DNA of 64,000 nt, taken from IMG/VR virus record IMGVR_UViG_2881214049_000001; one strand, given 5' to 3'. Each line of letters opens with the position of its first letter. Within the stretch, counting starts at the first letter, position 1. The DNA is from a virus. A model generated the notes under the pieces. The model was not told where the DNA came from. It did no database searches and saw only the letters and a program-made list of their open reading frames with translations. This document shows, one piece after another, positions 6,074-62,433 of this stretch. A program made the position numbers and the translations under genes.

Positions 6074-6153
6074 AGACCAGTCTCCGTATTTACACAACGA
6101 TTACGTTGTGTATTGTACAATATATTAAAGCAAGTTTTATATTGTACAAAGTT

Positions 6154-6184
6154 AAAAAAAGGGGGCGCACTCGCCACCCTTTTT
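6154..6184 (-). terminator. Rho-independent terminator after tail tube gene
   Basis: Minus strand GGGTGGCG-AGTG-CGCCCCC followed by T7. Confidence 0.75.
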
Positions 6185-6214
6185 GTTGCCACACGAATAT
6201 TACTTTATGGTTGC

Positions 6215-6745
6215 TTACTGTACAGAAGCACCAGCGCCCATTTTGAAGTAGTCGTATGATAAAGTTAGGCTCGGGCGCATGATATCTGACGTATCACCAC
6301 CTAGTTCACCGCCCCAGTCCACGCTTTCTAAATAACAACCAAATAGCTTGTAGGTCCAGATTGGCTCGTCCTGATTATTTAGACGAGTTAGCAGCATATC
6401 ACATTGATATTCCGCACGTTTCTTTTGTTTACCTATGCCTGTTTCCCACAGCGCTTCACGCCAGTTGTGAAGCATATTGTGGATAGTGTTATCGACAGTT
6501 TCAGCAAACGTGAGATTGATTGTGTGATCATCATCCACAATACCTGCTTGCTTGATATGGTGACCTCGGATTTGAATATCAATGCTCTGCACGGCGCTTG
6601 TTGGCAGTGAGCTTGATAAACATCGTACGTTTAAGTCGTTACGGTCGAATGCAACTGCCGGAGGGGGCGTGAACCAAACATCCCACTTATACAGAACAGC
6701 AAAGTCGTCTAAGTTACGGATCTGTTCAATTTGTAAACCAGCCAT
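6215..6745 (-). CDS. Tail tube protein (gp19-like)
   Basis: Immediately after the sheath; motifs LNVRCLSSSLP, TINLTFAET, WTYKLFGC, LTLSYDYF. Confidence 0.85.
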   Translation of the reverse strand: MAGLQIEQIRNLDDFAVLYKWDVWFTPPPAVAFDRNDLNVRCLSSSLPTSAVQSIDIQIRGHHIKQAGIVDDDHTINLTFAETVDNTIHNMLHNWREALWETGIGKQKKRAEYQCDMLLTRLNNQDEPIWTYKLFGCYLESVDWGGELGGDTSDIMRPSLTLSYDYFKMGAGASVQ

Positions 6746-6805
6746 ATTGGCCTCCTTTATTGGTGCAGGGTATGTACCCTACAAAAGTATCAAATGAACT
6801 GGCGC

Positions 6806-8680
6806 TTATGCAGCCAGTAACTGTTCTGCTAGGCTAAAATCTAAACCGGTTGGTAGTACTGCTGTGGTGAATGGAATATATTCAATACTGCGGGTCGGTT
6901 TAACAAATAGCCATAAGTTCATGCGGCCAGCATCAATGTCTTCTGGTGTGTTGTTTGAGTCGTCACAAACGACTTTAAAGTCATATACGCCTCGACGTGC
7001 CTTGATGCCATTCATGTATGACGTAACCATGGCACTTGCGATAGCACGTGATGACTCGTCGTTTAATTCAAACAAGAAGTTTTCTAGTGCATCGCGTACG
7101 GCCGGTTCTATGGTGATTAACATCATACGAACGTTGATTCTATCGAGTGCACTTGGCATTGAGCTCAGGGTTTTTTGACCCCAGATCAAGATGCCTTTAC
7201 CTGCTGCAAAGCGCAGCGGATTAATACCAGCGGCGTATAGGCGATCCATTTCGCCTTTATCGTAGCGACGGCGTACATCGAGTACTTTGATCACACCACG
7301 GTTAAGGCCAGCTGCTGGGTACCAAGCTTCTTGGTTCATTGCAGTGCGTGATACCGCAAGTGCCGCATAAGCTTCAGGTGAAACAAAGACAGCACGATTG
7401 TTGAACTTGTCGAATATCTTAACGTGTGAGCTGTAAATTGCGCCAAATGAGCTGTTTGCATTTAATACAAGGTTACGATAATCAACCACTTCATTCAGGT
7501 AGTTGCTGCTTGCTTCAGCGCTGTAAGGCGTTGACAGAAAAGCGAAACAGTCCATACGTTTTTCACATAATGCAAGTAATGCTTTTTGATAACTTGGTAC
7601 CGCATAGCCGCCGTCCATAAACAGCTTGATTGGGTAAGTATCAGAGTTTTCAAACTCTTTTAGCGCTTGCATCATGTGGCCCGCCATGACTGCGCCACCT
7701 AAATCACCACCTGCAAAACCAATCGCGTTAAGCACGTGATCAGCCGGCTCTCCTACATAACTTGGGTTTGCGAAACCACGAATGTAGTTAGATTGCTCAA
7801 GTACGTTATCCAAAAAGATATTCTTGTTGAATCCATCTACCGCATCTTCACGTAACGCACAGGTAAATGATTCAACTGGGTTGGCGCTATCATCTAGATA
7901 GACTTCTAGTACGAATGTATTTGGCGTGGTGGCCACTGGTGAGAATAATGACATCACAATGTCACCTTGACCAGCATCGGTAAACGTTACGTACTCTTCG
8001 TCAGCTAATGCTTGTGCAGAGGTTGCCAATCGGATCTTGCCGCTCTCTTCACTTTTGACATAGTAACCGCGATCGCCAGAGATGCCGGTTGGTAGTCTGT
8101 CATCTTCCGCTTGCTTTATCACGGCTAAACGCACCACTGAGCCCGTAGACCAAGCCTGCGTAACTGCTAGGCTGCTATCAAGTACTTCAGCATCAGCTTC
8201 ATCAGTAACTGTATTAAACGCAACTTTTTCTGCTGTACGATAGTTGTGTACTTTTACTGACAGGCGGTTACCCCATGTGCCTTGATCTGCTGCTGTCAGG
8301 ATGAATGCTTGTGGTGAAGCAGCTTTGATATCTAAGAAATCTTCGAAGCCATCTGCAATTGGCTTAGACTCTGTTTCAGAACCCATTTCGCCAATCGCGG
8401 TTGCTGCGAACTTTGCACCATCACCAAGTACACGACGAATGTACAATTTGTCTGCGCCGCCAAGATAAGTCAGTGCAGAGTAGTGTGCGTTGTCAGCACC
8501 AATTTTAACCTTACCATCAACCGTGTAACGGTTTAAAAAAGTGTTTTCACTGGTACATAGTTGCGGTTCTAGAGAACCTCTTTCAGCTTGTGGTAATAAG
8601 ATTGCGGCGTACATGCCGGCTTCTGAACCTACACGCTGAGATAAATTTAATTCTTTAAGAATGACTTGTGCAGATGACAT
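6806..8680 (-). CDS. Contractile tail sheath protein (gp18-like)
   Basis: WYPAAGLNRG, GINPLRF, GILIWGQKTL, DRINVRMMLITIE, FELND, GVYDFKVVCDDSNNTPEDID, VKPTRSIEYI. Confidence 0.95.
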   Translation of the reverse strand: MSSAQVILKELNLSQRVGSEAGMYAAILLPQAERGSLEPQLCTSENTFLNRYTVDGKVKIGADNAHYSALTYLGGADKLYIRRVLGDGAKFAATAIGEMGSETESKPIADGFEDFLDIKAASPQAFILTAADQGTWGNRLSVKVHNYRTAEKVAFNTVTDEADAEVLDSSLAVTQAWSTGSVVRLAVIKQAEDDRLPTGISGDRGYYVKSEESGKIRLATSAQALADEEYVTFTDAGQGDIVMSLFSPVATTPNTFVLEVYLDDSANPVESFTCALREDAVDGFNKNIFLDNVLEQSNYIRGFANPSYVGEPADHVLNAIGFAGGDLGGAVMAGHMMQALKEFENSDTYPIKLFMDGGYAVPSYQKALLALCEKRMDCFAFLSTPYSAEASSNYLNEVVDYRNLVLNANSSFGAIYSSHVKIFDKFNNRAVFVSPEAYAALAVSRTAMNQEAWYPAAGLNRGVIKVLDVRRRYDKGEMDRLYAAGINPLRFAAGKGILIWGQKTLSSMPSALDRINVRMMLITIEPAVRDALENFLFELNDESSRAIASAMVTSYMNGIKARRGVYDFKVVCDDSNNTPEDIDAGRMNLWLFVKPTRSIEYIPFTTAVLPTGLDFSLAEQLLAA

Positions 8681-8912: not shown

Positions 8913-9115
8913 GTTTGCTCCTAATGTGACATTAAAATTAGTCCCAAGTTACCGGTGTAATCTTGGTTTAGGTGTCTCAATGCCTGAATAACAGGCGCTC
9001 ATCTCACAGCTCATCGTCTCATAGGGTGTAACTTCAGGATAACGAGGAAGTTACGACTTTATTGTACAACAGTGATGGAAGGTTCGTCATCACTGGATTA
9101 AAATAATTCGCTAAT

Positions 9116-9802
9116 TTAATCGTTTGCAGGCTGTGCTTTAGACTCGCAAAGAAGATGGAGGTTTACCCCCTCAGAAGCGAAAATATTGGTGATTAACGCC
9201 AAAGTTTCATTCTTTGATACAATGAACGGCCCCCTCACTATAACTTCTGCACCAATGGATTTGGTTGCACTGTCACCAACGTCGACAGTAAAGTCTTGTA
9301 GGGCTTTCCAAGTAAGTTTGTATTCAATTTGTCCGATATCGGGAATATCAACACTAACTGCACTGATTTCACGCAAGCCCCCTGCCACGCTGTAGAGCAT
9401 TTCAAAGCGTTCTAATTCTTCCATGGAAGAGGTGATATACATAAACTTAAAAGTCATGTCACCGAATAGCACGGGGTATTTGTCCACAGCGGTTTGGCAC
9501 TGATGCGGATTGAGTGGATTTTCAGAGCGATATTTTTTTGCCAGTAATGTGTGACCACTTCGCCCAGCATATATGTCATTATTGCTGATGGTGGAGCGGT
9601 TAAATAGCAGCAATGGCAGCGCGGTTGGGTCTATCACTTGTTTTTTTTGATTCGCTGTGCGAAAGGCGCGCAAACCATCTTGATAGTCAAGTGATGGCGT
9701 GAATATCGCGTTGACATTAGGAAGGTAGTTACCTATTTCTTTGAGTAGATAATAGGTTACCAACGAAGGGGTTGCGACGACACGTGTTTGCGGATCAGTC
9801 AT
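9116..9802 (-). CDS. Probable tail completion / terminator protein (gp15-like)
   Basis: Sits between neck and sheath; ~230 aa; GGAGG RBS at ATG 9802. Product inferred mainly from synteny. Confidence 0.5.
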   Translation of the reverse strand: MTDPQTRVVATPSLVTYYLLKEIGNYLPNVNAIFTPSLDYQDGLRAFRTANQKKQVIDPTALPLLLFNRSTISNNDIYAGRSGHTLLAKKYRSENPLNPHQCQTAVDKYPVLFGDMTFKFMYITSSMEELERFEMLYSVAGGLREISAVSVDIPDIGQIEYKLTWKALQDFTVDVGDSATKSIGAEVIVRGPFIVSKNETLALITNIFASEGVNLHLLCESKAQPAND

Positions 9803-10265
9803 GAAGTTCCTCCGCCTCAATAGGCAATAACGCGAGCTTGTTCATCAAGCATTGTGTCACTCCCAGTGTGAGGGATTGTTTGACTTTGTAGGAAAATATT
9901 TTCCCATCACTACGCTCAAAAGTGAGCTTGTCTCCTGGTTTGATATCTGCTTGCGCGTACACCTCGACTTTTTTCGCGCTACCTAAAGCATGTGTGCCCT
10001 CAAGTACCCAGCCTCGAGAGGGAGGAATTATTTTTGCGCGAAATTCCTTAATTTCAAAGGGCGAATTGGGTCTTGTTGACATGGGCCCTGTATGGCCACC
10101 ATAAACACTGGCGATGGCAGACTGGGGGTTAAGCGTCTGAGGTTGCGATGACGCAACTGATACTTGGCGAGATACCTTGACCTCCACACCAAACATATTG
10201 ATCAAGGTGGGGAACATGGAGGCACTCCACCGACTGATGGCAGATTCAATATTAGGATATAGCAT
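9795..10265 (-). CDS. Probable head-tail joining / neck protein
   Basis: Synteny; beta-rich C-terminus (IKPGDKLTFERSDGKIFSYKV) like head-closure proteins. Confidence 0.45.
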   Translation of the reverse strand: MLYPNIESAISRWSASMFPTLINMFGVEVKVSRQVSVASSQPQTLNPQSAIASVYGGHTGPMSTRPNSPFEIKEFRAKIIPPSRGWVLEGTHALGSAKKVEVYAQADIKPGDKLTFERSDGKIFSYKVKQSLTLGVTQCLMNKLALLPIEAEELHD

Positions 10266-10318
10266 TTACAAGTCTCTTTGCAGTTATCAAACCATATTAT
10301 TGTACAATAACTGTTATT

Positions 10319-13800: not shown

Positions 13801-16800
13801 ATTTTAAATGATTCTTGCAAAGAAAAATTGATCAGCTTGAGCGCATCTGCTTGCATCCCTGCGGTGATAGAAAAAACTGCTTTTGGTAAAGTGATCAGCG
13901 GTTGAATAACCTCATATATTGCATTGACTAATTTAATTTCTTGCGTCGATGCTATGCTGTTGGTTTGCTTAACAGCAAGCTGTTGCTGCCAGTTCTTAAT
14001 TACTTCTACTGCGTTGAGCAAATGAGTGGGTCGGTGTGTTTGGCCATTGGCACGGATCAAGTAATGGGCGTAGTTGAGTACGCTTGCTTCAACCATCTTG
14101 ACAATGAGCTTGGCGCTAGATTGATGTAAAAATTGTGTCTGTTGGCCCGTGTGTGACAACGCGGCGAGCGCTTTGTTATACACGACACTTAGGTATTGCT
14201 GTGCTTGATATAAACGTTCATACTTCACCGCATCAGAACACAAAACAGCCATATTTTTGTTAATTTTAGATTGTATGGCAGAAAGTGTTTCTGATTCCAA
14301 AGACGCGTATTTTGAATACCGGCCTAGGCCTTGTACAAATTTATTTAAAGTTGTGACTGTGACGATGAGCAGCTCAAGCGCATTATTACTATTGAGACTT
14401 TTAAAAGCCACATTGACCTCTTGAGCTAGGGTTTTATCTATGGCTGTGTATATTTTATCACTGAGTCTGTGTACTTCGCTTAACCAGCGAGACGGAGCCG
14501 CGTTGAGCATATTTATGGATAAGTTTTGCCACGGCGTCGCGTTAACTTGATTATTTAGCTTAAATTGAAAGCTCGGTGACTGAATATAGTATCCGTCGTT
14601 AATTGCTACGTCACGGTAGATAATGCGTGCAGTGAACTGCTGTTCTATCCATTGTTTAAAGACCCCGCGTACTATTTTTGCGCTGGTCTGTATACTGGAA
14701 ATACCCGTTTTCTTTACGAGTGGTATATGCTGTTGAGCAAAGGTTGGTTGCTGATTGTCAGCAGCCTCTAAGCGTGAACACCAAAATCGTATGCTCTCAT
14801 TCGCTGTGCTTCTAATGTTTAGAGGCCTTGCATTGTCAGCGGCGCGTACGCCCAATATTTTACCTGTGATCAGCCAAGGTAGCTGAGATCTACCTGTGAA
14901 GCCGCTAGATTGATAGGCATGCCCCTGTTGGTTATTTAAAAAGTTCACCGAAAACAGGGTAATATTGTGCTCTCTTTGCGGTGTACTTTGAATGAGCTCT
15001 CCAAGTGTGAGACCAAGTTTGGAGAAGCGGTAGTTCATCATATCGCTTATGGCATGCGAATAGGTAGGTGACTCAGCCGTTAGTACGGACACGGGAATAT
15101 GTTTGATTTGTTTTGCCATCCAATACGATGCTTGTTCATGCACCCGTGATTGCCAGCCCTTCGCTATACTAGACAAGCTTTGCAGTGCACGAAGTGTCGT
15201 GCGGTATTGAGCCACGTTATACTGTATTTCAGATAGGATATTTTCGCCACCACTAAACGCACTGTCAGGCGACATGGTAATATTATTAGTCCACAAAGGG
15301 CCGCTAGCAATAGACTTGGCAATTACGTTGATAGGTTTACCGGTTGTAGCCTTTTTTAAATAGCGCGGCGCATTGACCTGAATTTTAGAGACGACGGTCG
15401 TCGTGTAGCCAATATTGTGTCTATCTGAACTTATTCTGGTGTAGCGATAAAGTTGATAAACAGGTGCGCCAAGAGATTGTCTGAACTGATCTTGCATCTG
15501 CGTAAAGGTCAACTTTTGATAATCGGCCGTTTGCTTGAGCAAAATACGCAACGCTATGGTTTGAATGGCATGTTGCGTATTATAAACCGCTGAGCCGATA
15601 TCATCAGAGTAGGCATTACTGACACCGGTAGTAAAAATGGCTTTGGCGAGCGTTGCTAATGATGATTGTGGTTCAACGGCAAACTCTGCTTTTTGCGGCT
15701 GATTTTCATTTAAGAATGACGCAATAAAATATTTGATCACATCGGCGACTTGAGCACTTTGTTGCGAGGCTGTTTGTTTAAGCAGTTGAGCGACAAACTT
15801 GTTGAGTTTATCCGCAACAGCGTGGGTATCCGAGGTGTGAGAAGGTGACAGCACACCTTTGATAAATTGGATCCTACTGCCACTTTCTTTTCCTATCCAA
15901 TTTGACAACACATCGTAAATTGCGCGACCAAGTAAATACTGCTGACCGCTCAAATGATAATTGATGATTGCGGGTGTTGAGGTATCCTGTCCATTCGCTT
16001 TATCGTAGTTAATATTACCCACTAAAGTTTGGGGTTGTGCCGTGTTAGCTTGCGAAGTTCCCGCTTCTAACTGTTTAGTGTGTGCGGCTGTGGAGGGCAC
16101 GTCTGGCGCTTCACTTTTAGACATACTCACTAAGTGTGCATTCATAGCATCAGCAAGTGGACCAGAATGTGCACCGGTCGCTGAGTACTCCATTTTATAG
16201 CCAGATGGGTGCAGTGCTAACCAACTAATTGCATACTGAATTGCCTCATATAAACGCTGGATGCGAGTACTCGACTCCATGATAAAGCTGAGAGTTTGTG
16301 CAACGTTTACGCGTTGGTTTGGTTGGCTTAGTAATGCGATTAATTGGTCATTACTGGCTGATTTTAATCCACCAATAATACTGAAATTCATCATCTCAGG
16401 TTTTGAGGCATGATAGCTTTGTATTGGATAGCTCGTCATAAAATTAGTGCCTAAATTGCTCTGACAGAGCAATCTTAATTTTACTGAGCCACACAAGCGC
16501 AGGCTTTGTTGCTTTGTTCTATGTGCGGTTAAATCTGTACCTAAGGATGCACTTAACTGCTTTAGCTCAAGTGCATTGATATTGTCCGCGCTTAATGTTC
16601 GCTGCCCCTCTACGGGTTGGGCTTTCCAGCTATCAACAGCATGCTGAATAGCCCAAATACTTCGCCTAAAGCGCCTTGCCTCTGCAGGTTGTCTAAAAGG
16701 TAACTTCGCTGCCCAAGAATAAATTTGGCTAGCAACTAGGTAGTGCTTAAGTTGACGTGTGGATCCGGTGAGCACCTCATCCACTGTGAGTGCACTTTGT

Positions 16801-19379
16801 GATGTTGCGCGCCGAGACTCGGTTTGCCCAACTCCTTTGGTACTTTGCAATGTGAGGGAAGTTAGTGTGTCATAGGCGACGGTGGCATTAACCTTAGTGT
16901 TGGCTTGATACAGCTCATTATCATAACCTAGCACGCCACTGTGGTTGTACATACTGATACCGTCAACCTCTTGGGTGCCAAAAAGCGGTAACTTTACGCG
17001 TACAGGCTGCATGCCGTTGCTGACTCTTGGGCTGATCCCTTCATGCCATGAGAACGCTCTTGTTTGTGGCGAGCCACTCGCTTGTGAAGGGTAGCCCACT
17101 CCTTGCGTTTTATCACTTGCCAACGAAATAGGGTTGCTAAATACAGACCAAGTATAACGCTTGCCAATTTTTTTAGAGGCAAATCGTCGCAGTCCTAAGT
17201 AACGCTGAATACCGCCCAGTGCCAGTCGATAGTGCCAATCTTTAGTGTAGGTTGAACTGACGTTAAACGAAGAACGCATATGAGGACTAAATACGCGTTG
17301 CTGTGACGTGGCGTTGGTACTAACAAAGCCAGAAGCACTAAGAACGTTTTCGTGTAATTGCCTCGACCCTTCACTCATCATGTCTATTTTAGGGCCATGG
17401 TGGGCATTCGTAGAGTAGAGACGACCTCGGTTAACGTCGTTAACGCGACTGAGCCAAGTTTGTAAATGAAACTTGGCTGTTGCCCATTGCTTTTGTGTGG
17501 GGCTTATTTTATATCGCGCATACCCGTGCTGAGAGTTCGCTGATGTGCGCCGTAAAATATAATGTGCGTTTTGCCATCGCACCGTTAGTTGTTCCGCCAA
17601 AGTATAAGCGTGTGTATAAGTACCCATACTCCTACTCTGGCCATCGTTAGCATATGTTTTGTGTGCGCAGGTATGAGCACTCACACATTGAGAGTTTGAT
17701 GTTAAATCTATTGAGTCTTGGCTTGATGGCAGTGATGGTACAAATTTTTGAGATCTCGCTCTGTGTAGATCCCAAAAACCAACGCTAAGTAGCGCGTGTT
17801 GGGTACTATTAAGTTGAAACCCTTGTATGAGTGGTGTTGTATTGGTATCGGTTGTAGTAGCAAAAACACGAAATTGAACGCCTTTGAGTTGCGCACCAGA
17901 GGGCGTAGTTGGTAAATTTGCTGACCAATCACTGTACTGAATATGGGCGTATTCTTCGTTGGAGTAGCTTACTCGAAATTCAAAAGTGACTGATGTGTTG
18001 CTTGGAGTTGTACCGCTTAGAAGTACCTCAGCGCCTTCGACTAAGGTTAGTGCAGATAAAGGATAAATTTCTGACACATACTTACCAACATAATAGCCTT
18101 CGGTATAGACTGGATTTTTAAGCGTTAATAACCCTCGTGCTGGCAACCACTGCATTCCCGTGAACTCACCTTGGGATAAATCAACATAGCGTTCAGAGGA
18201 AGCGAATGGCTCGTATACTTTGATGCTAACACGGTGGTGAAGCCCTGAGTGTTTGCTGAATTTGTGGCTGATAGCCAGTTGCTGATCGGTGATCCATGCA
18301 GCGCTTGTTAGCCTGCGTGACCCCGCTTCGTCTATAACAAGTTCTCCGCCATCGGCGAGCACAAGCAGTGGGTCGCCATCGCCACGTAACGAAAAATATT
18401 CGCTGGTATAAAACTCATCCTCTTGGCAGTGTCGCTGAGCGCTTAAGTTAAAATAGTCAGCTTTCTCTTGCAAGTTAACGAGCAGCTCAGGTTGATTGTT
18501 GGGTAGTGCTCCGGCTTCCTTTTCAATATGTTGTACAATTGAGGTCACTTCTTCATTACCAGGCTCTTGAATATCAAGGAGTGAAACAATATAGTCACCG
18601 TGGTGACGTCGATGCCAAGCCGTTTTGGTAGTGATGATTGGATCGGTACATATATTGACTGAGCCATAGGCGGGTAAAGGTGTAATGTCAGCATCAATCA
18701 AATCCAATACCAGGGCATCACCAGAATGCACTTCAGTAAATACCAGCAAGGAAGTGTGCCCACCAACATGCTGCACGCTGGTAGGCAAAGGTACATTTTG
18801 TACTTCCAGTCCTTCGAAAGAAACAAAGTATAATGTGGTCGCACTGACCGCTGCGACCGACTGTGCTTGAGGTAACCACACTAAATGGCGAATACCGGGT
18901 AACCCGGGTACGCTGCGATAGGGAACTAGCTCGAGTAGCCCTTCTTCTCGCGATAAAACCTGTTGAATTTCTATATGGAACATATCTGGACCAACTAGCC
19001 AAATAAGACCATCTGCCCAAATGATGTCGGTTATATTGTCGTGTAAGTTTACTGTTTGCAGGTGGATAAGGTTCGGGCTGAAAATATGCAGTTTGCCGTC
19101 TGCACTGAGTACTAATACGCGCTCGCTCCCAGCGATAACACCGCTAACCACGCGAGTTGGTGAGGCTACTTCGGCAACATACACCATATCATGGTTGATT
19201 GGCGTGACGGCAACGACGTAATTCTCATTAAAGTTTGCCAGATACAATAACCCTTTATTATCGGGTATAACGCTGGGTACTCTTTGTTCCGACTTAACAC
19301 TGAACCATTCTCTTTTGTCCGCTAGCGCATTGATAAATGCACGGTATTTCGCATTTTTTATGGTATTTATTACACTCAC
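10866..19379 (-). CDS. Giant 2837-aa protein, probable virion/baseplate component
   Basis: 8.5-kb uninterrupted ORF in the tail region; N-terminal beta-propeller-like region, then a structural-type domain (GTTPSNTSVTFEFRVS...VQFRVFATTTDTNTTPLIQGFQL). Confidence 0.7.
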   Translation of the reverse strand: MSVINTIKNAKYRAFINALADKREWFSVKSEQRVPSVIPDNKGLLYLANFNENYVVAVTPINHDMVYVAEVASPTRVVSGVIAGSERVLVLSADGKLHIFSPNLIHLQTVNLHDNITDIIWADGLIWLVGPDMFHIEIQQVLSREEGLLELVPYRSVPGLPGIRHLVWLPQAQSVAAVSATTLYFVSFEGLEVQNVPLPTSVQHVGGHTSLLVFTEVHSGDALVLDLIDADITPLPAYGSVNICTDPIITTKTAWHRRHHGDYIVSLLDIQEPGNEEVTSIVQHIEKEAGALPNNQPELLVNLQEKADYFNLSAQRHCQEDEFYTSEYFSLRGDGDPLLVLADGGELVIDEAGSRRLTSAAWITDQQLAISHKFSKHSGLHHRVSIKVYEPFASSERYVDLSQGEFTGMQWLPARGLLTLKNPVYTEGYYVGKYVSEIYPLSALTLVEGAEVLLSGTTPSNTSVTFEFRVSYSNEEYAHIQYSDWSANLPTTPSGAQLKGVQFRVFATTTDTNTTPLIQGFQLNSTQHALLSVGFWDLHRARSQKFVPSLPSSQDSIDLTSNSQCVSAHTCAHKTYANDGQSRSMGTYTHAYTLAEQLTVRWQNAHYILRRTSANSQHGYARYKISPTQKQWATAKFHLQTWLSRVNDVNRGRLYSTNAHHGPKIDMMSEGSRQLHENVLSASGFVSTNATSQQRVFSPHMRSSFNVSSTYTKDWHYRLALGGIQRYLGLRRFASKKIGKRYTWSVFSNPISLASDKTQGVGYPSQASGSPQTRAFSWHEGISPRVSNGMQPVRVKLPLFGTQEVDGISMYNHSGVLGYDNELYQANTKVNATVAYDTLTSLTLQSTKGVGQTESRRATSQSALTVDEVLTGSTRQLKHYLVASQIYSWAAKLPFRQPAEARRFRRSIWAIQHAVDSWKAQPVEGQRTLSADNINALELKQLSASLGTDLTAHRTKQQSLRLCGSVKLRLLCQSNLGTNFMTSYPIQSYHASKPEMMNFSIIGGLKSASNDQLIALLSQPNQRVNVAQTLSFIMESSTRIQRLYEAIQYAISWLALHPSGYKMEYSATGAHSGPLADAMNAHLVSMSKSEAPDVPSTAAHTKQLEAGTSQANTAQPQTLVGNINYDKANGQDTSTPAIINYHLSGQQYLLGRAIYDVLSNWIGKESGSRIQFIKGVLSPSHTSDTHAVADKLNKFVAQLLKQTASQQSAQVADVIKYFIASFLNENQPQKAEFAVEPQSSLATLAKAIFTTGVSNAYSDDIGSAVYNTQHAIQTIALRILLKQTADYQKLTFTQMQDQFRQSLGAPVYQLYRYTRISSDRHNIGYTTTVVSKIQVNAPRYLKKATTGKPINVIAKSIASGPLWTNNITMSPDSAFSGGENILSEIQYNVAQYRTTLRALQSLSSIAKGWQSRVHEQASYWMAKQIKHIPVSVLTAESPTYSHAISDMMNYRFSKLGLTLGELIQSTPQREHNITLFSVNFLNNQQGHAYQSSGFTGRSQLPWLITGKILGVRAADNARPLNIRSTANESIRFWCSRLEAADNQQPTFAQQHIPLVKKTGISSIQTSAKIVRGVFKQWIEQQFTARIIYRDVAINDGYYIQSPSFQFKLNNQVNATPWQNLSINMLNAAPSRWLSEVHRLSDKIYTAIDKTLAQEVNVAFKSLNSNNALELLIVTVTTLNKFVQGLGRYSKYASLESETLSAIQSKINKNMAVLCSDAVKYERLYQAQQYLSVVYNKALAALSHTGQQTQFLHQSSAKLIVKMVEASVLNYAHYLIRANGQTHRPTHLLNAVEVIKNWQQQLAVKQTNSIASTQEIKLVNAIYEVIQPLITLPKAVFSITAGMQADALKLINFSLQESFKIHPIKSILGKHLPNTLLIQNKALSKHASGAIEMSGRMYVDSLNQHMQLKFIPGTWVRNHYVFKKAHLLKQAGTKVHLPATIKWQVESGYCQHNQLEVAAYLVYQPWSKRFNMLNFKPLINKTTRLLQRVAIYREAGKRVLLSQKPQYWMPKPRYIFPHGLPDFLQDFGPFSPGLHLSQQQYIQELPKQDTAVLSTQKDAGLYALGLEHTQHVVRDKRSAGSVRLNYERNYAPFSADLQLFVNDFKQLSQAKKTVSRTIRRSAEQFSFGYSRLNMRYVQNRLGHEHTERLFSQAVTNTRLLIGAPSWLRASTHAQAYNSDNIAWRQTSQGIGKLTVDKWINTHLSNSTTRLLYKLATPLSTHSFTTAYRASRCSDIIFAHDTTTRAWQTIGTGTTRSIKHSGDQPAVKHVVIKETLTNPLTRTIQWEKLEALKTSANIPALVNLKVTTLSYNVTRLLTLRVTDVHTTKQSISLAKAHSMMRSTELTYQLVTPSDVPLGKVVQSPYKLLKQSMPDSVFVAMRHAKGFDLYGTVDLGKRTFCAPIPIKIQEMDRLKASTVSHYALKINTILRDSLYAHADKLDYTRLSPDSYIQSLMQYTAELTAVAIDHWQMKQTAPTISTKLHKEIIEILEGSWLTDKSFKQSLKTRGHLLNRLAQAMMLPPSVRQHYRQDLLSESTLLNALIQANHIDNVAQHALAQAGLSASTIHTLMAQSRQGLAERLALLRQSELNEVDVERIYDQQMLGAAKLMNTLTQLGVNTAQLESAYNQLQSPLDAASPIIAQYVEYPNLVMAIGAAFEQYLASDPRAYMHYRMNKGQVANHQRQYRFMTQNLPEVIDFYHQTHSTQRQLGANFAVDMTSILDSIDHSALQTKPFHDRVELNLPLNYRSDDYRRYKAGIVAIDLMQWLRDLRTDYREELIAKVQAGTAQGAYSPRAAMLDAVRNMVVEPILYRHPKDGSWMWRAYSPSDTQYNYIVWGSL

Positions 19380-19589
19380 GAGGCACCCTCATACTAGTCT
19401 CATTTGGCATCGCCTTAATATAAGGATTGTACCGCGATTGTTGAAATGAAGCAGTAGTGAGATTGAAATATTGTACAATAAATTAATGGGGACGGTGAGT
19501 TAGCCGTTTGAAAAGGAAGAAGGGCTGTTTCTCAGGCGATCCAAACCTAAGTTATTATATAAATATACGCAAACTCTGCGAGAAACAGC

Positions 19590-20887: not shown

Positions 20888-20904
20888 CCTCGTCCTCTCC
20901 TAAA

Positions 20905-24344: not shown

Positions 24345-24358
24345 CGATAACTCTCCTG

Positions 24359-49021: not shown

Positions 49022-49444
49022 TTAGACGGCTTTATTCTCTTCTTTCACAATACCAAGTGCTTTTCCTAGCAGCTCTTTGTATAGCTGGCCGCCTTGCAAA
49101 ATCCCTGCAAGAAGAATGCGTTGAGACTCCAATTCTGCAGCCTTCTTTTGCTGCTCTTTTGTCAGCTTACGCTTATCTTCAGGAAGTTCATTTTCCGCTT
49201 CACGCAATGCCGAGCTTCTTTCGTCAACATGTTTATTTAAGTGTTGTTGTACAACACCTATCGCTTGTTCAACTTGTCCTTTTGTTGCCATTTGAAACGC
49301 TCGTTGTGTCAGGCTAGCGAAGTCATCTGCTACAATAGCATATCCGTTATTACATTGCGTACATACCGCCGCAAGCTTGCCTGCTATCTCACCAACAATG
49401 CTAGGATTGCTACAATACGGACAGCGGGGTAAATTCATACTCAT
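49022..49444 (-). CDS. Zinc-ribbon (Lar-like) plus coiled-coil protein
   Basis: N-terminal RCPYC...VCTQC. Confidence 0.55.
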   Translation of the reverse strand: MSMNLPRCPYCSNPSIVGEIAGKLAAVCTQCNNGYAIVADDFASLTQRAFQMATKGQVEQAIGVVQQHLNKHVDERSSALREAENELPEDKRKLTKEQQKKAAELESQRILLAGILQGGQLYKELLGKALGIVKEENKAV

Positions 49445-49761
49445 TCTTTGATTTCTCCATTAATACAATAAAATCAAACTATTACACATACTTGATATGC
49501 AACCAGCCACTTCATAATGTGAGCCAGAAAGAAATAGCAATATGTAGAGTTTATATTTGTCTCATTCGCATGATGACTTAAATGTCTTCACATTTCAATT
49601 GTACAATAATATAGTAGCGCTATTATCACCTTTGAAAAACTTGAGTTCGCATTCTTTGAGCTTGTAGTGCATTGAGGTTTCAGTACTAGCGTTCTCAGAT
49701 AAATTGGCTAAAAATAATGAATTTGAGCAAAAAAAAACACCTTCCGTGTTTGGAAGTAAAA

Positions 49762-50742: not shown

Positions 50743-51030
50743 CTATTTTACATTCGGTAGAAGCTCTTTGAGTCGTTGACTCACTTTGAACTGTACAGTG
50801 TTGCACGCATCAATAGGAACAGGCTCTTTTGTTGAGGGGTTTCTCCCTAAACGCGCATTGCGTTGAACTACCTTTAGTGTTCCAAATCCTTGCACTCGCA
50901 CATCTTGCCCTGCTTGCAGAGCGTCACAAAACGCATCAATCACCGCATTCACACAACCACGAGCGTCCGTTTTACTAATTTTCATTGCGTCAGCCACATG
51001 ATCAGCCAACTCTGTCTTTGAAATTGCCAT
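50743..51030 (-). CDS. HU/IHF-family DNA-binding protein
   Basis: SKTELADHVA...VRVQGFGTL...RNARLGRNPSTKEPVPI...VQFK; ATG 51030. Confidence 0.92.
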   Translation of the reverse strand: MAISKTELADHVADAMKISKTDARGCVNAVIDAFCDALQAGQDVRVQGFGTLKVVQRNARLGRNPSTKEPVPIDACNTVQFKVSQRLKELLPNVK

Positions 51031-51280
51031 CTTAAATACCCCTAAATATCTACATGTCTCAGTTAACAACCAAATCATGAAGAGGTAGTAGATATTATAT
51101 TGTCACATTTGCATTATAATTTGATAGATATTGTACAATTTAATTCTATCGATTCGATAACAGATTAACGTCACTAAATTGGTAGAGGGCAGTTATATGA
51201 TTTTCTCTATTGTACCACGGTGCGCTTAAACACTCGCAGCGCAAAAACGAAAACCTACTTTATAACCGACTAAGTAACAT

Positions 51281-51687: not shown

Positions 51688-52271
51688 CGGTTGGGTCTAC
51701 TTAAAGCACTTATATCACCTTTAAAATATACGCTTTAAAATCATCATATTGCAGAGTCACATGCTGTAAGAGCATTTACTATTCTCTCTCACATTGCAAA
51801 TGTGCTATGTAACAATTAGCGTAAATCTTATGGTGTCTTTATATGTCTCATTTAATGTACATCGGAAACGAATATACTCCGCATGTTACAAGAAATCTAA
51901 TTAGTGTGCAGGAGTATCCAAGCTTTAATCCCCCTTGTCAATAATCAATTGTAACAAGAATAGAAACATTGCAACATAGTACAGGCACCTTAAAGCAACA
52001 AGCAAGTTGTACAATTATCAACCACCTACGATTAGTCAACTGAATTTATCAAAGAGTGATCTAATACAGTTGGCTGAAATACCACTTTTAATGACTAAAT
52101 GAACAACGGCGACAACACTGCTTATAATGAAAATTGTTGTACAACAAATTCTTTATTTTCAATACTTACGAACATATTCAGCATAATTTCATGTTGGGCA
52201 ATTGCTGCAACCAAGCAAACGAGAAAGCGCACCAAAACAGGACTTCGGAGGCCAAAATTTACTATTTTGAT

Positions 52272-52555: not shown

Positions 52556-53107
52556 ATGAAATTTAAGAGAGTTGTGCACGAGAAAAGTAATATCGATGGC
52601 TCTTCGGCTAGCGCCAAAGCTATCGCCCAAGCTCCTACCATCAAACTTGCAAATGTAAGCGGAAATAATGCCAAGTTAAGACAGGCTAAAGTTGGCTCGG
52701 CTATTGACCAAGTTGGGGCTTTAACTGCTGCTCGTGACCTGTTAGACGCTCGCATTGAAGAGGCACAGTCTTCACTTATGGATTTACTCAAAACCTCTAC
52801 ACAGCCTTCCATTGAGGGTAAAAAGTTTGTCGCAAGCAAAACACCAGTCTCCTGTAAGCAATTACTTCCTAAAGCAAAAGTAATGACTTCAATGATAGCG
52901 CTGTTACAAAAAGCAAATGAACAAAACAAAAACGATGGCGGACTTTTTGAAATGATTTTAAGTCTAGATCCTGACATCATTAATGCACACTTTCTGCCAT
53001 TACTCGAAGCTATTTTTGAAAAATCGGCACTAACTGAAGAAGCTGAAAAGCTCTATTTTGTCTCTGAAAAGGATGAAGTCGTAATCAGTCTTCGTGAAGC
53101 TGTTTAA
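52556..53107 (+). CDS. Hypothetical protein
   Basis: 183-aa ORF, GAGG RBS. Confidence 0.7.
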   Translation: MKFKRVVHEKSNIDGSSASAKAIAQAPTIKLANVSGNNAKLRQAKVGSAIDQVGALTAARDLLDARIEEAQSSLMDLLKTSTQPSIEGKKFVASKTPVSCKQLLPKAKVMTSMIALLQKANEQNKNDGGLFEMILSLDPDIINAHFLPLLEAIFEKSALTEEAEKLYFVSEKDEVVISLREAV

Positions 53108-53678
53108 TGTAACCTTTTTTAAGGGCAAGAAACGATATCAACCTCTTGCCCACCTTCTTACTCTTCTCAAGTCACCAAAATCCAGTTCCCATATTGTACA
53201 ATATGCTTGTATTATTCATATACTAGATTGCTTATTAAAATATAGGTATATTCGCGAAGTGGTTTTATTTATTTAGTCTGAACTCGGGGTAACAAGTGGG
53301 TTACTCAACGAAAATACCTAAGCTCAATAGGCATAATATCACGCAAGCCATAAGTTATGTCTTAATACGAAGCAAATTTGTGCATCAATAGATAGCCTAA
53401 TGCAAACAAATTTAGCGCAGTAGTAAAGGGTAACCGCTGTGAGAAGACAACTTATTGAGCCTAGCTTAGGTTATCTAGCCAGATATAGTTTTGGCGATAA
53501 CACGGCTTGCGCGTCCTGCTCTCGCTAAGGCCTCTGCCTCCTGTAGGAAAGGTTAACTTATGCAGCAATAGCAGGTTCTTGGAAGTAACGCCTTCAGATT
53601 GGGCAAGTATTAAAAGATAATGAGTATTAAATTCAGCCACAAATATGCAAAAATTAATGACTGAATTGGAGGCTTGTA

Positions 53679-57432: not shown

Positions 57433-57700
57433 AAAGCCTGCCGCGCACCATTACACGAATTGTATAATCGTATGCTAAGCGTGTTAGAATGTCACGCATT
57501 AGGGAATACAAAGCTATCACATTGGCTGTTATTCAAACATTTTTGACAAAATATCATCACTTATCGATACCTCCTTTTTTAAAAGTTGCCTAAAATGACT
57601 TTTATTGTACAATGAACTGAAAGTTACTGTTGTGCAGTCATTTTGGCTTGCTTCAACCTTCACTTTAAAAAAACCATCATGCTTACATAAAGGTGACAAC

Positions 57701-59137: not shown

Positions 59138-60499
59138 TTATACTAAGCGGATCTTGGTAATAAAACTTGGTACAAGCACATCAATTGCAGACCATACTGC
59201 AGCCGCTCTTTGGTTAACCAGCGGGTTAACACCATGCGGAAGTGCCGATGTAACAACAAGTGGCATATAAGGCGCGCTAACCAATGCACTTTCAAAATTT
59301 GACTTACCTTTATAAACACAGACTGCCGTATCAGCATCCATCACCTGTTGATTAGGCACACGTACAATTAAGATACCATCTAAAATACCGAAAATGTGTG
59401 GACCTACAGCAGCGCCGTCAGAAAGCTTAGTAAAGCCAGGTAAAGTTGCTGCCAATGCACAGACATTACGTCCCGCAACCATTGCCGAAATAGTGCCTCT
59501 GCCTGCATTATTTAAAATAGTCGCTTCAGCTTGCGCAATAGCATCTTTAAACCCTTGTTTGTGATCATTATAACTAATACCACTGGGTGCATTTTTCTTA
59601 AATGTCACCTCCCCCTGCGCTTTAGCTAATAACATGCGCGTAGCCGTATTCATTTGCTCTGAGTTAATGGCAGCGACGAGGTCTTGTGCAATTTCATCTT
59701 CGGCTACCATGCCAAAACGGCGGCGTAAAGCATAGGACTGCTGTAAACCAATCGTGTCTTTTAACGCCCATAAACGTGCTTGAACCGTTTTAGATGCAAA
59801 CTTCATCCCTACTTTTGGAATGTCATCTGCCGCGTCATAATCACCACTATATGCAGCGGTAATGGTATGCTCCGCCTCTGGCGCATGCTTTGTCGATAAA
59901 GTAACCGTACCATTGACGTAATCAATGGTGCCTTGAATATCGAAACCAATTAACTGACCTAACCCATTGTCTTGCGCAACTAAATTCAACTCTGCGATTT
60001 CAACACGTACAGAACCTACTTGCACAGGCGCATTTTTTAGCGAGAAGCTGTAGTCGCTCTCACCTGCTTGGGTTTGACCAAGTGCTTCACCCATCACATT
60101 TGACGTTGCAGACACACCTGATAATAAATCACCTGAGTTAAGCTGTGAGTCGCCGGATACAATATTCTTGAAGTAAATGGTGCCTTGTTCTTCATCAATT
60201 GGTTGAATTGACGCAATAGCAGATAAAGGTGAAGTACCGTAGGCGACAGTAAGCACATCCAGTGCAACATCTGGGATCTTACCCAACTGAGATAATGTGC
60301 CATCTTCTTCACAAAGCCGCTTATACACTTGGAAGTTTTCAAGTTGCTTACCCAACGCATAGACATCCGTTGTATTAATTGCACGCACTTTACTCAATAA
60401 AGAGTTTCTTTCTAATGCTTCGACAAAAGGCTTGTATTTCGTGAAGTAGTGATCTGCTTTGCGCTCAATTGCTTGGCCCGTTACGGTTTCTTGTAACAT
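59138..60499 (-). CDS. Major capsid protein (T4 gp23-like)
   Basis: LSAIASIQPIDEEQGTIYFK, KTVQARLWALK, EIAQDLVAAINSE, APYMPL; GAGG RBS before ATG 60499. Confidence 0.9.
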   Translation of the reverse strand: MLQETVTGQAIERKADHYFTKYKPFVEALERNSLLSKVRAINTTDVYALGKQLENFQVYKRLCEEDGTLSQLGKIPDVALDVLTVAYGTSPLSAIASIQPIDEEQGTIYFKNIVSGDSQLNSGDLLSGVSATSNVMGEALGQTQAGESDYSFSLKNAPVQVGSVRVEIAELNLVAQDNGLGQLIGFDIQGTIDYVNGTVTLSTKHAPEAEHTITAAYSGDYDAADDIPKVGMKFASKTVQARLWALKDTIGLQQSYALRRRFGMVAEDEIAQDLVAAINSEQMNTATRMLLAKAQGEVTFKKNAPSGISYNDHKQGFKDAIAQAEATILNNAGRGTISAMVAGRNVCALAATLPGFTKLSDGAAVGPHIFGILDGILIVRVPNQQVMDADTAVCVYKGKSNFESALVSAPYMPLVVTSALPHGVNPLVNQRAAAVWSAIDVLVPSFITKIRLV

Positions 60500-60580
60500 G
60501 GTAATGTCCTCAAAATTCATAAAAAACTATCAACAGCACTCGTTGGATATAACGAGCATTCATATTAGGAGTAAGCTGTA

Positions 60581-61711
60581 TTACTGTGTCGACTCAAACA
60601 ACGAGCTTAATCGACTTGTGCCTGTATTATCTTGGCTATCTGACAGCACTACGCTGTCTTCATAATTGACGGAAAAGTTTGCATATAACTGCTCAGACAA
60701 AGAGCCTACTCGTGTTCGTGCAGTCGAGTATTGCCCACCTATTTTGCTTAACGCTGCTTGAACTTCACATACGCTACCTAGCTTTTTATAGTCTTCTAAC
60801 TGCGCCATCATACTCGAGTTGAGCTGGCGAACTTCCGCCAGTGTTTGTTCCAGTAACTCAATATGCTCAGCCTGTGTTTTTGCCTGCTCATTTAGCGAAT
60901 CATTTTTGCTACGCAGTGTCGCATGTTCGGCATAAGCTTTTGCCAGACTCTCTTCAACGTGGCTTTTCTGTTTCGCTAGAGCCGCAATAGTAGATGCACT
61001 CTCACTCATTACAGTATCCTTAACGGGGTTAGTCTTTAACGGGGTCTCATTCTTTTCATCCACACTCGTTTGAATGCTGGTATTGGCCAGCTCAAGAATG
61101 GACTGATGTAATTTTGTGGCCTCATCATCGAGCGATTCGACCAACGAGGGAATAGCTTGAGCAACACCTGGCTCTTGCACGAAATCAAAGGTTTCAAGTA
61201 CAAAGCTGGTTTCATCTATCACCGGGGCATTGTCTCGTTTGTATGGCGTATAGCCTCCATAACCCCGACTAGATACAGGAAATTGCACACCGCCTCGAAG
61301 ATAGGCGTTCAGTACTCGACCAGCTGGGGTATTTAACACTAAGATTTCACCCATTCCTATGCTGTTTTTCTCATCAATCCATAATTTAGAGATCCGATGC
61401 GATGCCCTTCCTTCCAATAGAGCCTGATCATCAAGTGCCTGCGTATGGCCGATTGTGCCCAACATAGTTCCTGATGATATTTTAGCTTGGCTGCGCTCGA
61501 TAGCAGTACGCCATAATTCACGCGTATAAAAACGGCCATTGCGAGATGTACCATCGACTAGAAAAAATGGCCCTACAACACGCGCCAATATGCCTACTCC
61601 ATCTACCTGTGATGTTTCTTGCAAACCTTGTGTATGTTCAGACGCTTCACTGATCTGGTAGATCACATTAGACGTATCGAACGCGTCGATAAATAGTGTA
61701 CGCTCTGTCAT
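60581..61711 (-). CDS. Prohead protease (T4 gp21-like) with C-terminal coiled-coil scaffold
   Basis: SRNGRFYT, GTIGH, RASHRISKLW, ILVLNTPAGRVL, PVSSRGYG, FDFVQEPG; coiled-coil tail. Confidence 0.9.
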   Translation of the reverse strand: MTERTLFIDAFDTSNVIYQISEASEHTQGLQETSQVDGVGILARVVGPFFLVDGTSRNGRFYTRELWRTAIERSQAKISSGTMLGTIGHTQALDDQALLEGRASHRISKLWIDEKNSIGMGEILVLNTPAGRVLNAYLRGGVQFPVSSRGYGGYTPYKRDNAPVIDETSFVLETFDFVQEPGVAQAIPSLVESLDDEATKLHQSILELANTSIQTSVDEKNETPLKTNPVKDTVMSESASTIAALAKQKSHVEESLAKAYAEHATLRSKNDSLNEQAKTQAEHIELLEQTLAEVRQLNSSMMAQLEDYKKLGSVCEVQAALSKIGGQYSTARTRVGSLSEQLYANFSVNYEDSVVLSDSQDNTGTSRLSSLFESTQ

Positions 61712-61719
61712 GCGCTGCC

Positions 61720-62433
61720 TCATTTAAACTCTAATTTTTCACGCAGTCGTTGTACAATGTCTTGCTTAGAATCATTGTTGTACAAATGGTGCTGTGAATC
61801 TTGCAACCACTGCACAGCATCCACTGTACAGTTGGCTTTGTTGAACGCTTTTCCTAGCTCAACCGGATGGACTAAAGCTAGCAAAATACATAGTTCGTCT
61901 TCTTGCAAGGGTAAGTTAGCTTCACCCTTTGTTGATAAGCTGTCTATTTGCAACCATTTCTGCTCAATATTGAGCAGCATTGGGATGGCGATATCCGTCA
62001 CCTGCTGCCACTCTATGTGGTGACTTAACGTCTGGTACTCCTCATTCCCAGTGTATAGCAAGCTGCGTAGGGACGACACTGCATTTAACAAACGCTCCCG
62101 AACAATTAGCAGGCTTTTTTCATCCTGCCCGCAGATCCGAACAGCTAAATGTCGTCCCAAAATTTTGTGCATTCGTTTTCCAGCCGTACGACCATGAAAT
62201 CGGCTAGCAACACGCATCAGCATCGCATTATTTACAACTGAGCCATGCGCTATGCACTCACTTCTAGCAAAGTCACTGGCGCCATAAACTAAGCGATTTC
62301 TTCGCTCAATAAAAGCATCCAAAACATCTTCGGGGATCTGTTCTGGCGCCCTCCCATCCTCATCAATCAAGTCAAGCTGACCCACTTCGCACAATAACAG
62401 TACCCGCTCAGCAGGCTTTGCAAACCTCATCAC
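61720..62433 (-). CDS. Hypothetical head-module protein between portal and protease
   Basis: 237-aa ORF overlapping the portal stop. Confidence 0.65.
   Translation of the reverse strand: MMRFAKPAERVLLLCEVGQLDLIDEDGRAPEQIPEDVLDAFIERRNRLVYGASDFARSECIAHGSVVNNAMLMRVASRFHGRTAGKRMHKILGRHLAVRICGQDEKSLLIVRERLLNAVSSLRSLLYTGNEEYQTLSHHIEWQQVTDIAIPMLLNIEQKWLQIDSLSTKGEANLPLQEDELCILLALVHPVELGKAFNKANCTVDAVQWLQDSQHHLYNNDSKQDIVQRLREKLEFK

Follow-up and report, generated by a model that had tools for sequence, protein, structure and literature searches.

The 8-bp palindrome TTGTACAA is scattered in large numbers over a 64,000-nucleotide stretch of viral DNA (the window; IMG/VR record IMGVR_UViG_2881214049_000001), where it very probably forms the core of a protein-binding site with dyad symmetry. 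As part of the core programme conserved in a phage clade, this site would mark where most lytic transcription units begin. The window is the reverse complement of positions 16,733-80,725 of NZ_CP072685.1 (99.3% identity), a circular 128,275-bp plasmid of Pseudoalteromonas sp. SCSIO 43201, which is a near-identical copy of the element. In the nearest genome (G001), contig C15 (128,281 bp, 99.1-99.2% identical to the window) is the element itself, and a search with the sheath protein gave a 100% match on contig00015 (128,281 bp) of Pseudoalteromonas peptidolytica DSM 14001. Its genes mark the element as a myovirus-like phage-plasmid of T4 type: head protein, prohead protease, sheath and tube were recognised on it and the Pfam domains Gp23 and S77 in its relatives, in line with the label "T4-type element" used in a first-pass annotation of the window. 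Nearly all of its proteins remained without a Pfam or PHROG name in scans of about 60 proteins.

Thirty-four exact copies of TTGTACAA are present in the window, compared with a mean of 2.0 and a maximum of 8 in dinucleotide shuffles. The first-pass annotation had counted 33; every position which it listed does contain the motif, and its estimate of about 22 intergenic copies agrees with the 22 of 34 obtained when intergenic and genic calls were made with the RefSeq gene map of NZ_CP072685.1. The complete replicon (128,275 bp) contains 62 copies, with about 3 expected, and TTGTACAA is by far the most over-represented 8-mer of both the window and the replicon. Forty of the 62 copies are located in intergenic DNA, which makes up 16% of the replicon and is expected to contain 0.7 copies after shuffling, so that the intergenic bias claimed earlier persists under a null model. 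Using the reversed word of TTGTACAA as control in the genome counts, it was found that contig C15 holds 62 of the 160 copies in G001; the remaining 4.97 Mb contain 98 copies compared with 110 of the control, and the density on the element is 24.5 times that of the rest of this genome. The enrichment is specific to the element and not a property of the host-like genome, since the rest of G001 holds fewer copies than of the reversed control, which answers in the negative the earlier question of whether the host chromosome is equally enriched.

Relatives of the element were collected as contigs encoding the family of a 110-aa protein, P110, which was used in a full HMMER search, and then by searching IMG/VR with an alignment of a 159-aa protein, P160. 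P110 belongs to a small family with 22-88% identity, and every contig that was fetched carries enriched TTGTACAA. The motif occurs 12 times in L234 (GC 41%, 0.56 expected), a relative with 96-98% nucleotide identity, 6 times in L236 (GC 44%, 0.36 expected), 11 times in L240 (GC 45%, 0.45 expected), whose head protein and portal are 72% and 55% identical, 10 times and always between genes in L242 (GC 64%, 0.05 expected), and twice in the 1.7-kb contig L243 (GC 59%, 0.01 expected). The P160 search returned one contig, G406, a jumbo-phage sequence of 281,557 bp with an estimated completeness of 67%. It has homologues of 66 of the 107 plasmid proteins, with a collinear structural module at 30-85% identity, and contains 149 copies of the motif (101 of them intergenic), compared with 5.1 expected and 4 copies of the reversed control. 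The plasmid and L234 do not align in the spacer that comes after the P110 gene and contains the site at 40844, yet one TA-flanked site is present there in each. A negative control of 1.88 Mb from the surroundings of distant sheath relatives showed 0.034 sites per kb and neither P110 nor P160, and sheath searches of genomes, IMG/VR and metagenomes yielded relatives at 45% identity or less, all of which lack the motif. Word-index protein searches with P160 and with the ribbon-helix-helix (RHH) protein of the element retrieved only the element itself, and P160 has no match in 50,697 GenBank phage records and, among 72,556 plasmids, matches CP072685 only. Judging from these sequences, the motif is not private to the element; it is common to an uncultured clade of large T4-type phages with GC contents of 41-64% and protein identities of 30-75%. 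On the same grounds, its putative reader must be an old and essential part of the clade core, because the signal survives this range of GC content and this degree of protein divergence, and it should be among the proteins shared with G406, because G406 keeps the motif. The spacers of G406 (L246-L260) contain a further enriched intergenic word, ACGACTGCA, with CGACTGCA present 25 times versus 0.8 expected; this word was not seen on the plasmid.

The core of the site is all-or-none: its 24 one-mismatch variants total 79 copies, with 72 expected, and show no intergenic bias, and among the half-site spacings only TTGT-ACAA with zero spacing is enriched. On the element, the consensus is (T)A-TTGTACAA-T(A), which corresponds to the 12-bp sequence TATTGTACAATA. 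Flank counts at 28 sites (T 16 at -2, A 21 at -1, T 24 at +1, A 22 at +2) continue the palindrome, and the symmetric extended flanks described in the first-pass annotation are hence real. Within 30 bp of the core, only these two positions per side are conserved at element sites, and the AT content is equal on both sides. In G406, 63 gene-oriented sites gave a symmetric 18-bp palindrome, AATCR-TTGTACAA-YGATT, regardless of gene direction. The core is followed by T in 24 of the 28 element sites and in 32 of the 63 G406 sites, and mostly by C in L242 and L236. The flank asymmetry on the element (T at +1 in 24 of 28 sites versus A at -1 in 21 of 28) was considered as a direction cue; it was judged too small and dropped. 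Between divergent genes, 108 nt before the P160 gene, a perfect 28-bp palindrome (38337..38364) is built around the motif at 38347-38354, and TATAAA hexamers abut its core on both sides; another palindrome, about 34 bp long (41420..41453) and with the motif at 41433-41440 as its centre, lies 23 nt before the P110 gene, perfect in CP072685 and with one mismatch in the window. A stand-alone dyad-symmetric site of this kind has the sequence signature of a two-fold symmetric protein.

The placement of the sites relative to genes is non-random. Convergent spacers of the replicon contain 2 sites in 4.8 kb (0.4 per kb), compared with 10 sites in 4.3 kb of divergent and 28 sites in 11.6 kb of co-directional spacers. 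In G406, convergent spacers carry 1.1 sites per kb, about a third of the density elsewhere; divergent and co-directional spacers hold 2.3-3.3 sites per kb in the replicon and G406. When only G406 spacers of at least 50 bp are considered, a site is present in 73% of the divergent, 43% of the co-directional and 16% of the convergent ones. In 26 co-directional spacers, the distance between site and start codon is never below 21 nt, with a median of 90 nt (P = 0.007 under uniform placement). The motif lies upstream of gene blocks, as had been proposed from the first inspection of the window, and it almost certainly has a regulatory function. Most spacers contain one site each, and by a rough estimate the sites follow one another along the genome with no greater regularity than expected by chance. 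The portal operon, the operon of the protease and the major head protein and the operon adjoining the tube gene each have a tandem pair, 26-29 bp apart, in front of them, and two sites follow good terminator-like hairpins, one after the tail tube gene and one before a gene for a 2837-aa protein. Large spacers that lack a site are found at the ParA/muramidase block, the gene for a cI-like helix-turn-helix (HTH) protein, the Rep-like gene and the Fic (FicTA) module. The window, C15 and CP072685 differ from one another by 0.7-0.9%, and no core carries a substitution, where about 2 would be expected per comparison.

The individual sites before or between genes are as follows. The tandem pair next to the tube gene consists of 6142..6149, which lies 14 bp past the terminator-like hairpin 6179-6163 ending the tube gene, and, 29 bp away, its second member 6113..6120; from there it is 39 nt to the 168-aa gene that comes after the tail tube. 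The intergenic site 9062..9069 precedes the unit of a small gene, sheath and tube, and 10300..10307 is located in a 53-bp spacer, 34 nt before gene 9795..10265. The gene for the 2837-aa protein is preceded at 91 nt by the site 19471..19478, which lies downstream of the terminator-like hairpin 19613-19595. Further intergenic sites are found 75 nt before gene 20905..22878 (22954..22961), 82 nt before gene 24359..25705 (25788..25795) and 159 nt before gene 26812..27894 (28054..28061), and a pair 58 bp apart (29964..29971 and 30022..30029, the latter 15 nt past the stop codon of the cI-like HTH gene) precedes gene 29167..29838. Gene 32431..32742 has an intergenic site 59 nt upstream (32802..32809) and another 2 nt past its stop codon (32422..32429), in a spacer annotated as convergent; likewise, 48130..48137 lies 3 nt past the stop codon of 48140..48583 in a convergent spacer. 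The site 40844..40851 is intergenic, 91 nt before gene 39715..40752, and 51131..51138 is intergenic, 100 nt before an HU-family gene. In divergent spacers, 49599..49606 precedes an operon of an 88-aa gene and a SecB-like gene, 52007..52014 and 52137..52144 share a spacer of 954 bp, and 57605..57612 lies in the spacer 57422-57704. The intergenic site 53194..53201 has TA flanks on both sides. The tandem pair of the head operon is embedded in the 3' end of gene 61720..62433: 61750..61757 lies 38 nt before the unit of prohead protease and major head protein, and 61778..61785, 28 bp from its partner, 66 nt before the prohead protease gene. This pair inside the gene before the protease is also present in L240.

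Sites within genes are also more frequent than expected. The replicon contains 22 of them, compared with 3.2 after codon shuffling and 4.5 +/- 2.0 after synonymous resampling, and G406 contains 50 compared with 8.6 expected. Fifteen of the 22 are in the frame xTT-GTA-CAA, and 15 of the 31 [ILVF]-V-Q tripeptides use the motif codons, with 2.5 expected from codon usage. The in-gene sites are thus selected at the DNA level through synonymous codon choice, and they are not preferentially located near gene ends. In the window, the gene for the 2837-aa protein contains two (14331..14338 and 18531..18538, the latter encoded as I-V-Q), and gene 24359..25732 also contains two (25266..25273 and 25481..25488); 20864..20871 is located 16 nt inside the 5' end of gene 19628..20887, and 22801..22808 inside the 5' part of gene 20905..22878. 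Single sites are present in the genes 36613..37026 (36740..36747), 37789..38271 (37840..37847), 46306..46719 (46562..46569) and 49022..49444 (49247..49254).

Searches for promoter signals around the sites gave little. Sigma-70 scores of motif-bearing spacers (7.4) show no real excess over those of the reverse strand (6.8) or of shuffles (6.5). A TAnnnT hexamer starts 13-18 nt downstream in 35 of 155 gene-facing sides and 13 of 110 other sides (P = 0.035, uncorrected), and the register of the weak gene-side hexamers varies, being +4..8 or +13..18. The possibility that the motif is a -35 or a box of the MotA kind, with a -10 at a set distance, was also considered, and no fixed register was found. 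The first-pass annotation had proposed a bidirectional promoter, since the motif with its flanks contains TACAAT on both strands; the relatives, however, often have TTGTACAAC, in which TACAAT is lost and the palindrome is kept. The T4 late promoter sequence TATAAATA is not enriched, with 12 copies on both strands of the plasmid (4 intergenic) and 10 in G406 (6 intergenic). When the motif was masked, the sole other enriched intergenic word was (A/T)TGAGAC, next to start codons. It occurs 6-12 nt before them (e.g., 38428-38436); ATGAGAC was counted 21 times in plasmid spacers versus 2.6 expected, and the start-codon-adjacent word ATTGAGAC 26 times in G406 versus 1.3 expected. GAGAC was rejected as a second promoter element since it sits 6-12 nt before start codons and resembles a ribosome-binding signal; from its sequence and position, (A/T)TGAGAC looks like a clade-specific ribosome-binding or translation signal that differs from the canonical AGGAGG.

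From the sequence patterns we infer that a protein dimer binds the sites, that binding affects transcription, and in which direction it does so. We tentatively prefer the reading that the sites are a positive, promoter-specifying signal of the clade, through which a phage factor guides the host RNA polymerase. According to this model, TTGTACAA would be the invariant core of a dyad site of 12 bp on the element and 18 bp in G406, which would be bound by a two-fold symmetric, probably dimeric, phage-encoded protein. This protein would belong to the clade core rather than to the plasmid/lysogeny module of the element, and once bound it would bring the host RNA polymerase to those phage genes which have no ordinary -35/-10 promoters. 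The extra copies before the head and tail operons and, by way of synonymous codons, within genes would raise the occupancy of the factor on phage DNA. In favour of a positive role, the motif is the sole conserved element in terminator-following spacers without host-type promoters, and new transcripts would start at the sites because terminator-like hairpins lie directly before them. In addition, copies are doubled before what should be the most heavily used operons, and the conservation is deep, comparable to that of the T4 late promoter.

Several observations weigh against a promoter-specifying role. A perfect palindrome gives no direction, and symmetric elements are, to our knowledge, not read by any sigma factor or phage RNA polymerase. 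On the gene side, no -35 or -10 stands in a fixed register, and the best downstream -10 score equals that of the mirrored upstream side. The synonymous selection for sites deep inside genes, including those of G406, is difficult to reconcile with promoters, as internal promoters would be of little use there. Six-frame searches of the plasmid and G406 gave no match to Sigma70_r2 or r4_2, and a multi-subunit RNA polymerase domain was not detected on either. In two seawater metatranscriptome runs, contigs cover small parts of a close relative, and the best-covered stretch (52330-53864) begins after a sigma-70-like promoter and not after a site; contigs, however, cannot show transcript starts and are not usable for or against any model. 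Finally, a known repressor operator of E. coli has the same sequence (PMC1802561). Beside the metatranscriptome contigs, a near-consensus sigma-70 promoter (TTGACA-17-TAGATT, 52272-52330) lies just before the contig starts at 52316 and 52330, and the 183-aa gene 52556..53107 together with a downstream thioredoxin gene is the best-covered part of the 20 kb examined. For the 10-kb structural stretch, no RNA data set was listed.

Three products of the element come into consideration as binders. The P160 gene (38463..38942, plus strand, 159 aa) adjoins the 28-bp palindrome and is present in every motif-bearing relative fetched, always with a site upstream; it is a candidate factor only. Structure searches with its model (pLDDT 86.5) gave no informative relative, the best VIA Z being 5.0. 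P110 (41077..41409, minus strand, 110 aa, pI 9.7), whose family occurs in motif-bearing phages only, may be a factor or else a clade marker; its model (pLDDT 90.6) has a generic ferredoxin-like fold and no informative structural relative. HU-family proteins are dimeric, and the HU-family gene of the element (50743..51078, minus strand) encodes a candidate from a DNA-binding family that is common to G406, whose homologue has three sites directly upstream. The binders suggested in the first-pass annotation, namely the HTH protein (gene 30044..30571), the RHH protein (41493), "ParB" and the 57701 protein, are unlikely, because G406 keeps the motif in 149 copies without homologues of any of them; homologues of ParA and of the Rep-like protein are likewise lacking in its 281,557 bp. 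No sigma factor or polymerase domain is detectable on the plasmid or G406, and the clade probably uses the host RNA polymerase. A T7-type polymerase domain was also not detected; the PF00940 search was unmatched in control genomes too and is therefore uninformative. Proteins of the gp55/gp33 type diverge fast, and none was named by Pfam or PHROGs among the about 60 proteins scanned. Other candidates were rejected: the YefM-like antitoxin of G001 has no TGTACA upstream of its own gene, the model of the 88-aa SecB partner in the Atlas, considered as an antitoxin-like binder, is a helical bundle without informative neighbours, and the 51-aa open reading frame (ORF) upstream of the plasmid Fic gene has a FicA-type S-x-x-x-E-G motif instead of being a Phd partner. 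In a bolder form of the promoter-specifying reading, which seems unlikely, the clade would have no core-promoter element other than the palindrome, which would be read by a symmetric dimer with a new fold (P160, P110 or a sequence-specific HU-family protein). Such a factor would recruit or re-programme the host RNA polymerase without -35/-10 sequences, closer to the logic of a TATA box or initiator than to that of sigma factors; as a variant, an extruded hairpin might be read by an undetected polymerase such as the 2837-aa protein, in the manner of N4, whose hairpin promoters are served by a giant virion RNA polymerase.

A possible but less likely alternative reads the site as an operator for a dimeric negative regulator conserved in the clade, which would act in temporal shut-off, as a silencer or as a transcription roadblock, comparable to YefM on its palindrome, to the L5 stoperators or to the KorA/KorB operators of RK2. 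By binding at weak core promoters or next to them and inside long genes, such a protein would keep the lytic units off until it is removed. This would be consistent with the perfect dyad symmetry that is kept in each lineage despite differing flank bases, with the variable register to the weak TAnnnT hexamers, with the synonymous selection for in-gene sites and with the TATAAA hexamers abutting the core before P160. Moreover, the ParA, cI-like, Rep-like and FicTA spacers lack sites, and these genes are needed on in the plasmid state. Highly conserved dispersed operators on a scale of 12-30 are known from P1 (C1) and RK2. The stoperators of mycobacteriophage L5 provide a further precedent for dispersed conserved operators (PMC9283540). 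The E. coli antitoxin YefM binds the palindrome TCATTGTACAATGA (L), in which TACAAT serves as the -10 for the promoter of the antitoxin itself; the Phd sites of P1 share the GTAC centre (PMC1802561). The central 10 bp of this operator are identical to the site on the element (ATTGTACAAT), and 14 bp to the G406 consensus TCR-TTGTACAA-YGA, which is a match of sequence only. However, YefM and Phd act at one autoregulated locus with two sites, spaced by 12 bp for YefM and 12-13 bp for the two proteins, in contrast to the 62-149 dispersed single sites found here and to pairs 22-29 or 58 bp apart. The Phd/YefM domain (PF02604) was not detected on the plasmid or G406, and a domain search alone is weak evidence. 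Furthermore, the spacers show no sigma-70 promoters that could be repressed, the terminator-like hairpins right before sites imply new transcript starts, and the use of one 8-mer across GC contents of 41-64% and proteins of 30% identity would be unusual for an immunity repressor. An immunity repressor would fit the many near-identical dispersed sites in spacers; the own divergent spacer of the cI-like gene, however, has no site, and tblastn found no homologue of the cI-like HTH protein, nor was there a ParA match, in G406 (contig about 67% complete). A P1-style lysogeny repressor, as one form of the global repressor proposed in the first-pass annotation, is weakened, as the motif lies deep in the clade and the plasmid/lysogeny module is specific to the element. 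Taken more broadly, the options of that annotation, a master regulator site of negative or of positive sign, both survive; the narrow forms, the P1-style repressor and the TACAAT promoter, have lost ground.

It is improbable that the sites serve a DNA transaction other than transcription (centromere or ParB loading, HU-based nucleoid organisation or packaging, nuclease protection, or entry of replication or recombination), with the position before genes merely reflecting where a palindrome is tolerated. Synonymous choice favours in-gene sites as though each extra copy helps, the element has a ParA operon as well as the conserved HU-family gene, and "ParB" is weakly similar to GapR (E = 0.06). 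This explanation, however, does not account for the three- to sixfold rarity of sites in convergent spacers relative to promoter-bearing ones or for the exclusion zone before start codons; mostly one site is found per spacer, which is below what would fit, the genomic spacing is no more regular than chance by estimate, no ParB domain was detected in "ParB", and G406 keeps the motif without a ParA-type (AAA_31) Pfam match in 282 kb. The earlier suggestion of a dispersed parS is disfavoured for the same reasons, i.e., the absence of ParA/ParB from G406 and the avoidance of promoter-less convergent spacers. Even less probable is that TTGTACAA is the target of a phage or host DNA methyltransferase, restriction-type or nicking enzyme. 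A palindrome that is exact over 8 bp and all-or-none is what would typically be expected for type II enzymes, and a 473-aa plasmid protein shows a weak Pfam match of methyltransferase type, which at 16.9 bits stays below the cut-off; phages, however, usually lose such palindromes rather than gain them, the one-mismatch neighbours are not depleted and so give no hint of repair-driven conversion, the symmetric flanks extend over 12-18 bp and are longer than a typical enzyme site, and the placement at transcription-unit starts would be left unexplained. An origin of the excess as a by-product of base composition, repeated mobile sequence or repeated coding segments is refuted by the null models. 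The same word does occur as tandem 9-11-bp iteron arrays (G404, G405) and as a coding repeat (L173) in unrelated IMG/VR contigs, and an IMG/VR pattern scan for paired sites retrieved only such unrelated phages. On the element, in contrast, the counts are far above every shuffling or resampling null, the sites share nothing past +/-2 bp of the core, sites are kept in relatives with 64% GC, and the 31 [ILVF]-V-Q tripeptides are close to a rough composition estimate of about 33, so that the skew lies in codon choice alone. The tight TTGTACAAT arrays of the unrelated phages, with an iteron-like period of 9-11 bp, are located at 3631-3747 of L175 (G404) and 12598-12767 of L202 (G405), and the word may be read by DNA-binding proteins elsewhere too. 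No phage paper describing TTGTACAA was found in the literature, where matches to the word are dominated by Gateway attB primer sequences.

Genome-wide regulons with a single motif are already known from phages and plasmids, such as the T4 late promoters, L5, P1 C1 and KorA/KorB of RK2. The T4 late promoters (TATAAATA), which are served by gp55, gp33 and the gp45 clamp, resemble the sites described here in several respects: they consist of a single near-invariant 8-bp element without a -35, they occur in dozens of copies before structural and other genes and in part inside upstream genes, and they are conserved over a phage superfamily that includes the head and tail genes of the element. The sequence here is a different one, however, and forms a perfect palindrome with symmetric flanks, and the similar-sized clade markers P160 (159 aa) and P110 (110 aa) have predicted folds unrelated to gp55 and gp33. 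The L5 and P1 sites are asymmetric, those of L5 are orientation-dependent, the RK2 KorA/KorB operators are perfect palindromes of 12-13 bp, and these regulons belong to immunity or maintenance modules. L5/Bxb1, P1 C1 and RK2 share with the clade tens of near-identical short sites dispersed mostly in short spacers, whereas the motif described here is kept in a relative without a maintenance module and is also selected inside genes. Mu C/Mor, P2 Ogr and T4 MotA are phage proteins which likewise act upstream of promoters lacking a -35, in the case of Mu as a dimer on a dyad; their 4 to about 30 sites lie at a fixed distance from a clear -10, in contrast to the sites of the clade. The core promoter octamer of Mimivirus, AAAATTGA, is not palindromic and is read by a virus-encoded polymerase system. 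Giant-virus octamers are similar in that an exact octamer is found tens of bases before the start codons of many genes; they differ in symmetry and in the viral polymerase, for which no counterpart was detected here. What is new in the present system is an exact palindromic core, conserved over very divergent genomes and GC contents, combined with synonymous selection and with a reader that belongs to no recognisable DNA-binding or polymerase family.

Some further features of the element were observed in the course of the analysis. "ParB" (537 aa; 42061-43674, minus strand), which follows ParA, has no Pfam family, and its residues 48-122 weakly resemble Caulobacter GapR (UPF0335; E = 0.06-0.3, two proteins only). 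The 2837-aa protein (10866-19379, minus strand) also lacks a Pfam family; conservation in G406 is limited to its N-terminal ~1292 aa (29% identity). Of the six paralogous genes at 19628-27894, two were scanned (19628..20887 and 26812..27894), and both match the PHROG "tail sheath" 12249 (E = 4e-44 and 6e-38), in addition to the separate 624-aa sheath gene at 6806..8680. At 29167-29838 (minus strand), the window has one frame of 223 aa, where RefSeq has genes of 85 and 82 aa in CP072685; G406 has separate matches to the two halves of this frame (57% and 51% identity). A Fic protein with the motif HPFREGNGRAQR is encoded outside the window, at L003:31386-32118 (plasmid 121386-122118), and is preceded by the unannotated, overlapping 51-aa ORF, and from their sequences the two likely form a FicT/FicA addiction module of the phage-plasmid.

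Taken at face value, a single 8-base word seems to underlie how almost all lytic gene blocks of a phage lineage are expressed. Identifying its reader would bring to light a novel mode of directing bacterial RNA polymerase or, alternatively, a novel class of phage silencers that act genome-wide. As the element is maintained as a stable plasmid in culturable Pseudoalteromonas strains, the system is directly testable. The motif also provides a one-line marker for spotting members of the clade in metagenomes, and it could serve as a portable, orthogonal control element for marine Gammaproteobacteria.

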